Positions 20,698 to 20,722 of a stretch of 64,000 nucleotides of DNA are shown in pieces. The stretch is from a phage, in NCBI GenBank assembly GCA_014913405.1, contig GCA_014913405.1_3931.1; one strand, 5' to 3'. Position numbers and translations under genes: made by a program. A model generated the notes under the pieces. It did not search any database and was not told where the DNA came from. It saw only the letters and a list, made by a program, of their open reading frames with translations. The number at the start of each line of letters is the position of its first letter. Positions within the stretch are counted from its first letter, which is position 1.

Positions 20698-20722
20698 TTG
20701 TTGACAAAGTACTTGACAAGGT
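20698..20722. promoter_or_regulatory. Conserved divergent-junction element GTTGACAAAGTACTTGACAAGGTG (tandem TTGACA)
   Basis: Near-identical copy at 63198-63223. Confidence 0.6.

Follow-up and report, generated by a model that had tools for sequence, protein, structure and literature searches.

A second TTGACA hexamer conserved in the spacer of three predicted sigma-70 promoters of a Felix O1-like phage

We analysed a stretch of 64,000 nucleotides of phage DNA (contig GCA_014913405.1_3931.1 of GenBank assembly GCA_014913405.1), which is called here the window. It carries three pairs of TTGACA hexamers in tandem, two of them at junctions between divergent gene blocks (J1 and J2) and one at a third site, S3. 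Comparison of these sites with their counterparts in related phages gives clear evidence at the sequence level that the second hexamer of each pair (hex2), a -35-like box embedded in the promoter spacer, is a selected, clade-specific feature of three promoters with structured leaders. The three sites are very probably rightward-firing sigma-70 promoters that use the upstream hexamer, and hex2 is almost certainly functional. As for the way in which it works, the explanation that we lean towards, taken as a whole, is a set of sigma-70 promoters in which hex2 is recognised by RNA polymerase itself.

Felix O1-type phages encode no recognised RNA polymerase, and host-type promoters precede their early and late genes alike; no phage sigma factor or polymerase modifier was reported in the paper on Felix O1 (Whichard et al. 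2010, PMC3185647). In the same work, reverse transcription PCR detected expression of open reading frames (ORFs) 41, 96 and 97, which was highest at 25 min.

Results

Three tandem pairs on one strand

The window is Felixounavirus DNA, 98.7% identical to phage wV8, of whose genome about positions 3,100-67,100 are the counterpart. The 1-kb stretch around the element shows 98-99% identity to many Felixounavirus genomes and 98.1% to Felix O1. A GenBank record named 'Staphylococcus phage SA1' (GU169904.1) is, at 144265-145266, 97.7% identical to the Felix O1-like junction of the window, and this record is probably chimeric or contaminated.

The J1 and J2 copies of the 24-bp element (Table 1) differ at a single position (23/24 identical), and their hexamers start 12 bp apart; at S3 the distance is 13 bp. 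An earlier reading of the sequence alone (the sequence-only reading) had announced a near-identical element at the second divergent junction, where it is indeed present. Its coordinates deviate by 0-4 nt: the J1 copy, given as 20698-20722, is off by 1-2 nt, and the third pair, which exists, was placed at 10237-10255 instead of 10233-10251. Its distance of 13 bp between hexamers holds for S3 and not for the other two sites.

A chance origin of the tandem pairs is excluded. With up to 3 mismatches, the 23-mer of the element occurs twice in the window (0.00 expected), and TTGACA-N4-9-TTGACA is found three times (0.29 expected), a count reached in 1/100 shuffles. All three pairs are on the plus strand. 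No further tandem copy was found in the remainder of a wV8-type genome, so that the total is three, and the element has no match in chromosomes or prophages among 5,426 E. coli genomes.

At J1 the element separates a leftward gene (ATG at 20601 as annotated in relatives; mechanical ORF start at 20622) from a rightward DUF5681 gene at 20851, which heads a block with a DUF2828 RNA-binding-type protein, tRNA genes (26 in the window, at 22884-28095), terminase and structural genes. J2 is flanked by the leftward DNA polymerase gene and a rightward gene for a 140-aa protein at 63396. The rightward block after it contains primase/helicase, nrd genes and nadV, and continues across the conventional genome start into rIIA/B and small early genes. 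S3 is placed near the end of that block, between the rightward genes 9859-10200 and 10401-10931, and is no divergent junction. The divergent location that the sequence-only reading had given the element is therefore right for J1 and J2, and the tandem element is not specific to divergent junctions, because S3 sits between co-directional genes.

Table 1. Positions of the tandem elements, promoter parts and leaders in the window
Feature	Position	Strand	Remarks
Copy 1 (J1) of the 24-bp element, GTTGACAAAGTACTTGACAAGGTG	20700-20723	+	Felix O1 'P41' at 21515-21541
Copy 2 (J2) of the 24-bp element, GTTGACAATGTACTTGACAAGGTG	63198-63221	+	Also carried by Felix O1
Copy 3 (S3), TTGACAATACCCCTTGACA = TTGACA-ATACCCC-TTGACA	10233-10251	+	Between two rightward early genes
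A-tract / UP-like sequence GTTAAAAAAGTTG before J1 -35	20688-20700	+	AAAAAGTTG-type tract
J1 upstream TTGACA, predicted -35	20701-20706	+	Best sigma-70 register; invariant in 33 loci
J1 downstream TTGACA (hex2), in spacer, about -23 to -18	20713-20718	+	Invariant in 33 loci
J1 predicted -10, TAGGCT	20724-20729	+	17 bp from upstream TTGACA
J1 leader, about 115 nt, predicted start to DUF5681 ATG, long hairpin	20736-20850	+	Fold z = -2.8
J2 upstream TTGACA, predicted -35	63199-63204	+	Register scan, conservation
J2 downstream TTGACA (hex2), about -24 to -19	63211-63216	+	Invariant in 26 loci
J2 predicted extended -10, TGtTAATCT	63220-63228	+	Hexamer 63223-63228, 18-bp spacer
J2 leader, about 160 nt, long hairpin 63280-63334	63235-63395	+	Fold z = -4.4
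S3 predicted extended -10, TGgTAACTT	10253-10261	+	Hexamer 10256-10261, 17-bp spacer from 10233
S3 leader, hairpin 10271-10319, sites 10279, 10293, 10304	10268-10400	+	Fold z = -2.8; conserved in three genera
Candidate leftward J1 promoter, TTGTCA(20707-20702)-18-AATAGT(20683-20678)	20678-20707	-	-35 is the complement of upstream TTGACAA
Candidate leftward J1 promoter, TTGACT(20675-20670)-17-TACCAT(20652-20647)	20647-20675	-	Region conserved (20647-20707)
Candidate leftward (DNA polymerase) J2 promoter, TTGCTT(63197-63192)-17-TAATGT(63174-63169)	63169-63197	-	
Single promoter-like site, TTGACAAGGTG-...-TACCTT	60404-60432	-	Directly after the DNA polymerase stop codon

Promoter architecture and earlier annotation

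The upstream hexamer matches the -35 consensus at 6/6 positions in J1, J2 and S3. When the sites were scanned with a rough sigma-70 weight matrix, based on frequencies from published compilations, the register of the upstream hexamer ranked first at all three, with 11-12 bits compared with 8 bits or less for every other register. The -35 box is preceded by an A-tract at every site, as AAAAAGTTG-type tracts also precede most other TTGACA promoters of the window. TGn stands before the -10 hexamer at J2 and S3. The TG of J1 directly adjoins the hexamer and is replaced by TA in Felix O1. The claim of the sequence-only reading that these are promoters is thus well supported by an upstream TTGACA with TAnnnT at 17-18 bp, by the A-tract and by the conservation pattern of -35 and -10.

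We propose that each copy is the core of a strong sigma-70 promoter, with the upstream TTGACA acting as -35, the TAnnnT 17-18 bp downstream as -10 and the A-tract as UP element, and that host RNA polymerase would fire rightward from it. The J2 promoter would launch a long unit for replication and nucleotide metabolism, and the J1 promoter a unit of DUF5681, tRNA, terminase and structural genes, while the one at S3 would re-initiate near the end of the unit launched from J2. Transcription starts and timing at the three promoters are predicted here from the sequence.

The promoter itself is ordinary, and one copy is already annotated as a predicted promoter. The Felix O1 paper lists a promoter P41, TTGACA(N15)TATAGG, at 21515-21541 (PMC3185647). 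These coordinates map onto 20701-20727 of the window, exactly on the J1 upstream hexamer. P41 is thus the same site as J1; it differs from our prediction in that the upstream TTGACA is paired with TATAGG at 15 bp and the second hexamer goes unmentioned. A similar sequence was said to be absent from the 96-97 intergenic region of Felix O1 (PMC3185647), which according to our alignment does carry the J2 copy. This second copy, overlooked by the literature, is new. The GenBank records of ASO1B and ASO1A mark predicted promoters at J1 and S3, and the ASO1B register begins at the downstream hexamer.

Other promoter-like sites were observed in the window. Strong TTGACA promoters with UP-like tracts are located at 21235, 22738, 22828 and 24293 on the plus strand, between the DUF2828 gene and the tRNA clusters, and the one at 22738 sits within a bidirectional terminator hairpin (Felix O1 t42/t43). 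At the single site of 60404-60432, the 11-mer that hex2 forms with its flank, TTGACAAGGTG, is seen once more, here as the -35 region of a promoter-like site 17 bp from TACCTT.

Selection on the second hexamer

Comparative loci were collected independently of the motif, through BLAST searches with the flanking DNA or with the downstream protein as anchor. The 66 loci obtained (33 for J1, 26 for J2 and 7 for S3) come from Felixounavirus, Suspvirus and Mooglevirus, and variable columns were counted over their distinct sequences. Both hexamers are present at the same offset in 66/66 loci. The sequence-only reading had set conservation in related genomes beforehand as the test that could refute it, and across these three genera the element is clearly conserved.

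Variable columns are absent from the upstream hexamer (0/18), from hex2 (0/18) and from T-12, A-11 and T-7 of the -10 box (0/9), whereas 7/9 of the middle -10 positions and 20/34 columns in the rest of the spacer vary. The difference between hex2 and the remaining spacer is significant (0/18 vs 20/34, Fisher p = 1.3e-5). Such a distribution of constant and variable columns is typical of a -35/-10 pair, and it shows that selection acts just as strongly on the second TTGACA. At J1, the six nucleotides before hex2 and the nucleotide after it vary around a constant hexamer, and the -10 box reads TAGGCT, TAGCCT, TAAGTT or TAGTGT, with T-12, A-11 and T-7 kept and the middle changing. The middle four nucleotides of the stretch between the hexamers vary at J2, where the extended -10 of Mooglevirus is TGgTAGTCT, retaining TAnnnT. 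S3 keeps both hexamers at the 13-bp offset in the three genera, with TAACTT, TAATGT or TACATT as -10.

It could be argued that hex2 has no function and is a neutral leftover: the -35 region would have undergone a 12-bp duplication, which recombination then carried from junction to junction, as the near-identity of the J1 and J2 elements might reflect. We find this hardly credible. Hex2 is invariant across three genera that are only about 77-84% identical in coding DNA (blastn hits spanning the junctions and flanking genes), while the neighbouring spacer bases have diverged; moreover, beyond the element itself the sequences flanking J1 and J2 show no relationship, and S3 has another spacer and offset.

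More distant relatives lack the tandem arrangement. At the homologous DNA polymerase junction, the Erwinia phage phiEa21-4 has a single TTGACA-17-TACATT and the Pectobacterium phage Arno18 a single TTGACA-17-TAGGCT, both with a homologous leader and both without hex2. In the J1 region of the Erwinia phage Pistou there are two TTGACA boxes, 36 bp apart, which is not the 12-bp tandem. As phiEa21-4 and Arno18 keep promoter and leader without hex2, the second hexamer is a clade-specific addition and not a part of the basal promoter. It is present at all three promoters of the genera Felixounavirus, Suspvirus and Mooglevirus, which infect E. coli, Salmonella, Shigella and Citrobacter.

Possible partners of the second hexamer

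Without exception, hex2 is a perfect -35 consensus, in most cases CTTGACA. It lies within the spacer, roughly one helical turn past the predicted -35 box, and is constrained as strongly as the latter. We hypothesize that hex2 could offer sigma region 4 another place to dock, situated over the spacer segment from -24 to -18 that is contacted by the beta' zipper, and that it would alter polymerase capture or opening at promoters with weak -10 hexamers, with further control probably exerted on the long structured leaders downstream. The spacer segment from -24 to -18 is described as a polymerase contact, the Z-element, which matters most when the -10 is weak, and polymerases from Thermus, E. coli and Bacillus have all been shown to respond to it (Yuzenkova et al. 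2011, PMC3173786). The span of hex2, from -24/-23 to -19/-17, overlaps this element, and at J2 positions -22 to -18 read GACAA, sharing A-21, C-20 and A-19 with T7 A2.

The layout TTGACA-N6-TTGACAAG-TG-TAnnnT is also found in unrelated phage lineages, as a scan of IMG/VR contigs indicated, and hex2 is conserved within each lineage. In tblastx searches, the non-Felix IMG/VR contigs gave no hits against the window; therefore, the likeness in layout is not due to common descent. Many hits of the first scan were discarded as coding sequence (xDKxxDK motifs), probably including the L015 group (VDKALDKV). Two sets of contigs are of interest. In marine T4-like contigs, the layout neighbours the late-sigma gene g55 but is directed away from that gene, with a conserved core and diverging flanks and -10. 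In Firmicutes-phage contigs, it precedes short hairpin RNAs.

These contigs allow some observations of their own. The tandem TTGACA, immediately upstream of g55, occurs at 11960-12050 of contig L080 and also in L031, L099, L106, L111, L117, L125 and L126. Since this promoter points away from g55, it would transcribe antisense into the preceding gene, and it could be an early antisense or interference promoter that controls late-sigma expression. Contigs L055 (2566-2660) and L119 (reverse, 1392-1421) carry a tandem-TTGACA / TGtTATAAT promoter directly followed by GGCGAAGCC and a terminator-like hairpin, which suggests that it makes a very short non-coding RNA; its start region resembles GCGAAGTGG after the J2 -10.

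Offsets were also compared among perfect TGnTATAAT promoters in IMG/VR, with hits collapsed by lineage. A second TTGACA was found at an offset of 10 bp in 4 lineages, of 11 bp in 6, of 12 bp in 3 and of 13 bp in 0; the scrambled control gave 2 lineages at 11 bp. It is tempting to propose a distinct and recurrent promoter module, read by the polymerase as an undescribed basal promoter element and present in phages of several bacterial phyla. Its members would be the Felix O1-like phages, the marine T4-like myophages and the Firmicutes phages, and it would act through alternative docking of sigma region 4 or contacts with the core enzyme, instead of being an operator confined to one lineage. We consider such a general module improbable.

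The sequence-only reading had suggested overlapping promoters or an operator. In the first case, each TTGACA would be the -35 of its own promoter, with starts about 12 nt apart. At J1, hex2 is followed by AATACT or AACACT at 15-16 bp, with A-11 and T-7 kept in all genera; moreover, it is exactly the hex2 register that the ASO1B record annotates there, and an unrelated phage family, whose hexamers are offset by 10 bp, does have a TATAAC 17 bp after the second one. However, no hexamer with both A-11 and T-7 stands 15-18 bp after hex2 at J2 or S3, where the only candidates are CGAAGT, GAAGTG, AAGTGG and AGTGGG (J2) and GGGGGT (S3), and the T4-like and Firmicutes-phage examples are likewise without a second -10. 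A second -10 for hex2 is thus ruled out at J2 and S3 and weak at J1 (AATACT at 15 bp or, in other genera, AACACT at 16 bp). Two overlapping promoters are, in our opinion, quite unlikely to account for the three sites. Their rejection as a general explanation is a new result.

Alternatively, the two TTGACA boxes could be direct-repeat half-sites of an operator for a DNA-binding protein encoded by the phage clade or by the enterobacterial host. Bound across the -35 and the spacer, such a protein would switch the three promoters off or set their timing. That both hexamers are invariant and the bases between them free is a pattern of two half-sites, and hex2 with its flanks, CTTGACAAG, is a 9-bp palindrome as read from J1 and J2. 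Furthermore, hex2 is present at all three promoters of one clade and at no homologous promoter examined in Kolesnikvirus or Arno18, as expected from co-evolution with a clade-specific factor. On the other hand, a candidate regulator was not found: Pfam and PHROGs revealed no DNA-binding domain in the seven flanking proteins, whose only domains are DUF5681 and DUF2828/DUF7788. The spacing of the half-sites is not fixed (12 bp at J1 and J2, 13 bp at S3), and the unrelated phages of other phyla that share the design would each need their own TTGACA-binding factor. We regard an operator of this kind as possible, although doubtful.

Our preferred explanation has to be weighed against several observations. 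As regards the promoters themselves, the -10 hexamers match the consensus at only 3/6 positions, and because of this a generic promoter scanner made no call at the three sites; the searchable literature yielded no mapped transcription starts for Felix O1-like phages. Other points concern the recognition of hex2 by the polymerase. Relative to the Z-element, hex2 is displaced by 1-2 bp at J1 and S3, and it does not match AACCT/AACAT in a fixed register; the distance from hex2 to the -10 varies (4, 5 or 6 bp), and so does its offset from the -35 (12 or 13 bp). The Erwinia and Pectobacterium phages manage without hex2, while their hosts presumably have essentially the same polymerase. Finally, the enrichment of offsets across lineages is suggestive, with small counts, and not significant.

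Because it also covers the unrelated lineages, the polymerase-based explanation has a slight edge. Nevertheless, it and the operator are about equally likely, and the data do not separate them. Regarding the partner of hex2 taken by itself, the polymerase is a plausible but tentative choice and a separate DNA-binding protein an equally tentative one. A second overlapping promoter is an improbable partner, and something other than these three is no more probable.

Other recognition systems were considered and rejected. A T4-type late promoter (TATAAATA, gp55) does not fit, as the TATAAATA at 20730 reads TAATAAAA in other genera; there are two copies in the window. Sigma-32, -54, -28 and -E promoters, the boxes of PhoB, OmpR, PhoP and PmrA, the T4 MotA box and lambda CII sites were compared by eye and did not fit in spacing or sequence.

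Leftward promoters at the divergent junctions

Candidate leftward promoters are present at both divergent junctions (Table 1). At J2, the -35 box of the candidate promoter for DNA polymerase is separated by 1 bp from the rightward -35, and its -10 is TAGGGT in the Mooglevirus phages Mordin and Sf19, with TAnnnT retained. The two polymerases would therefore have to compete for overlapping DNA. This overlap accounts for the upstream hexamer at most.

One may ask whether the -35 box itself is shared. TTGACAA, a 7-bp palindrome (complement TTGTCAA), could also serve a leftward promoter and couple both directions. TTGTCA lies 18 bp from TGcAATAGT at J1, the latter conserved as AATAGT, AATACT or AATTTT, and the leftward TTGCTT-17-TAATGT abuts the element at J2. 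Yet a shared box can explain only the upstream hexamer and not the downstream one. In addition, the leftward -35 of J2 is a different hexamer, S3 is without a leftward gene, and relatives with the same divergent junctions do without the second hexamer. We give this possibility little chance. The idea of the sequence-only reading that the element coordinates divergent transcription is weakened by S3, between co-directional genes, and by the divergent junctions of relatives, which lack hex2.

Within 63136-63197 (minus strand), transcription from the predicted leftward promoter of J2 would start near 63162. This favours the ATG at 63138 (Shine-Dalgarno GGAGT) as the start of DNA polymerase over 63159 and 63168, from which the longer versions in the wV8 and Felix O1 records begin.

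Structured leaders and repeat-rich regions

All three promoters are followed by leaders with a predicted long hairpin (Table 1). The leaders contain units of the CTTAAAAG, CTTTAAAG and CTTAACAG types; the first unit is found 18-21 nt after the -10 (20750, 63247 and 10279), and from one unit to the next the distance is often 10-13 bp. The J1 leader has CTTAAAAG-class sites at 20750, 20764, 20812, 20821 and 20833, is nearly invariant across three genera and shows one compensatory pair. In the J2 leader, the 5' end pairs with the ribosome-binding site to form the outer stem, the ACGTATAGAATACGT hairpin displays compensatory changes, and eight CTNWWWAG-class sites make it the densest 150-bp stretch in the window. 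The leaders are conserved better than the genes next to them: the J2 intergenic region has a mean column identity of 90% across genera, as compared with 77-84% in blastn hits spanning the junctions and flanking genes. No Rfam family was found at threshold for the junctions or leaders, where only sub-threshold chance hits appeared. These leaders may be RNase III sites, translational control or antitermination elements, or arrays for protein binding. A cluster of CTNWWWAG sites at 42351-42500 is within a gene and was judged to be due to chance.

Repeats of the same class fill an ORF-free region of 1.67 kb (11575-13243), where the rightward early block converges with a leftward block. It is bounded by terminator-like hairpins at 11627-11648 and 13197-13218 and packed with CTTGTTAG, CTGTTAAG, CTATAAAG and CTTAAAAG at a phasing of about 11 bp, together with many inverted repeats. 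CTnTAnAG, found 79 times in the window (23 expected), is concentrated there. The region might serve as an origin, in packaging, or as a regulatory region coated with protein.

Between 6400 and 10200 of the window, repeated cassettes (annotated as DR_1 to DR_9 in wV8) stand before each of the small early genes. In these cassettes a promoter (TTGACActgatttttagatagatTAAATT, at 7342 and 8205) is combined with a stem-loop, GGGGCTTAAAAG...CCCC, an arrangement that brings to mind the mobile promoter-stem-loop cassettes known from T4-type phages.

Discussion

Phages of the Felix O1 type are widely used in typing, biocontrol and therapy of Salmonella and E. coli. Three promoters with a clade-specific extra element and structured leaders offer easily mutated targets for seeking the missing regulator. 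If hex2 acts via the polymerase, the design of strong or tunable bacterial promoters would gain a new rule. Should neither hold, our results would be a modest correction and extension of the existing promoter annotation.

Direct repeats about one helical turn apart over the -35 region are known from lambda CII and P22 C1 (TTGC-N6-TTGC at PRE) and from PhoB/OmpR-type boxes. Those repeats have a period of 10-11 bp and other sequences, and they activate the promoter by standing in for, or next to, a poor -35. In contrast, the sites described here have a perfect -35 and a period of 12-13 bp, and no homologous regulator was seen. The overlapping tandem promoters gal P1/P2 resemble them in having two -35-like elements within one polymerase footprint, but two of the three phage sites lack a second -10.

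In overall layout, the three sites resemble canonical sigma-70 early promoters of lytic coliphages, such as T7 A1-A3, those of T5 and lambda PL/PR, which also combine TTGACA, a 17-18 bp spacer, TAnnnT and an A-tract. Like them, the predicted promoters have TG before the -10 (2/3 sites) and would head transcription units of the host polymerase. They differ from them by a second perfect TTGACA in the spacer that is conserved as strongly as the -35, by a weak -10 (3/6) and by leaders that are long, structured and highly conserved. With the Z-element and its beta'-zipper contact (PMC3173786), hex2 would share a spacer segment of about -24 to -18 that aids open-complex formation, especially with a weak -10. 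The Z-element examples are AACCT and AACAT at -22 to -18, whereas the phage promoters carry a full 6-bp TTGACA whose register shifts by 1-2 bp.

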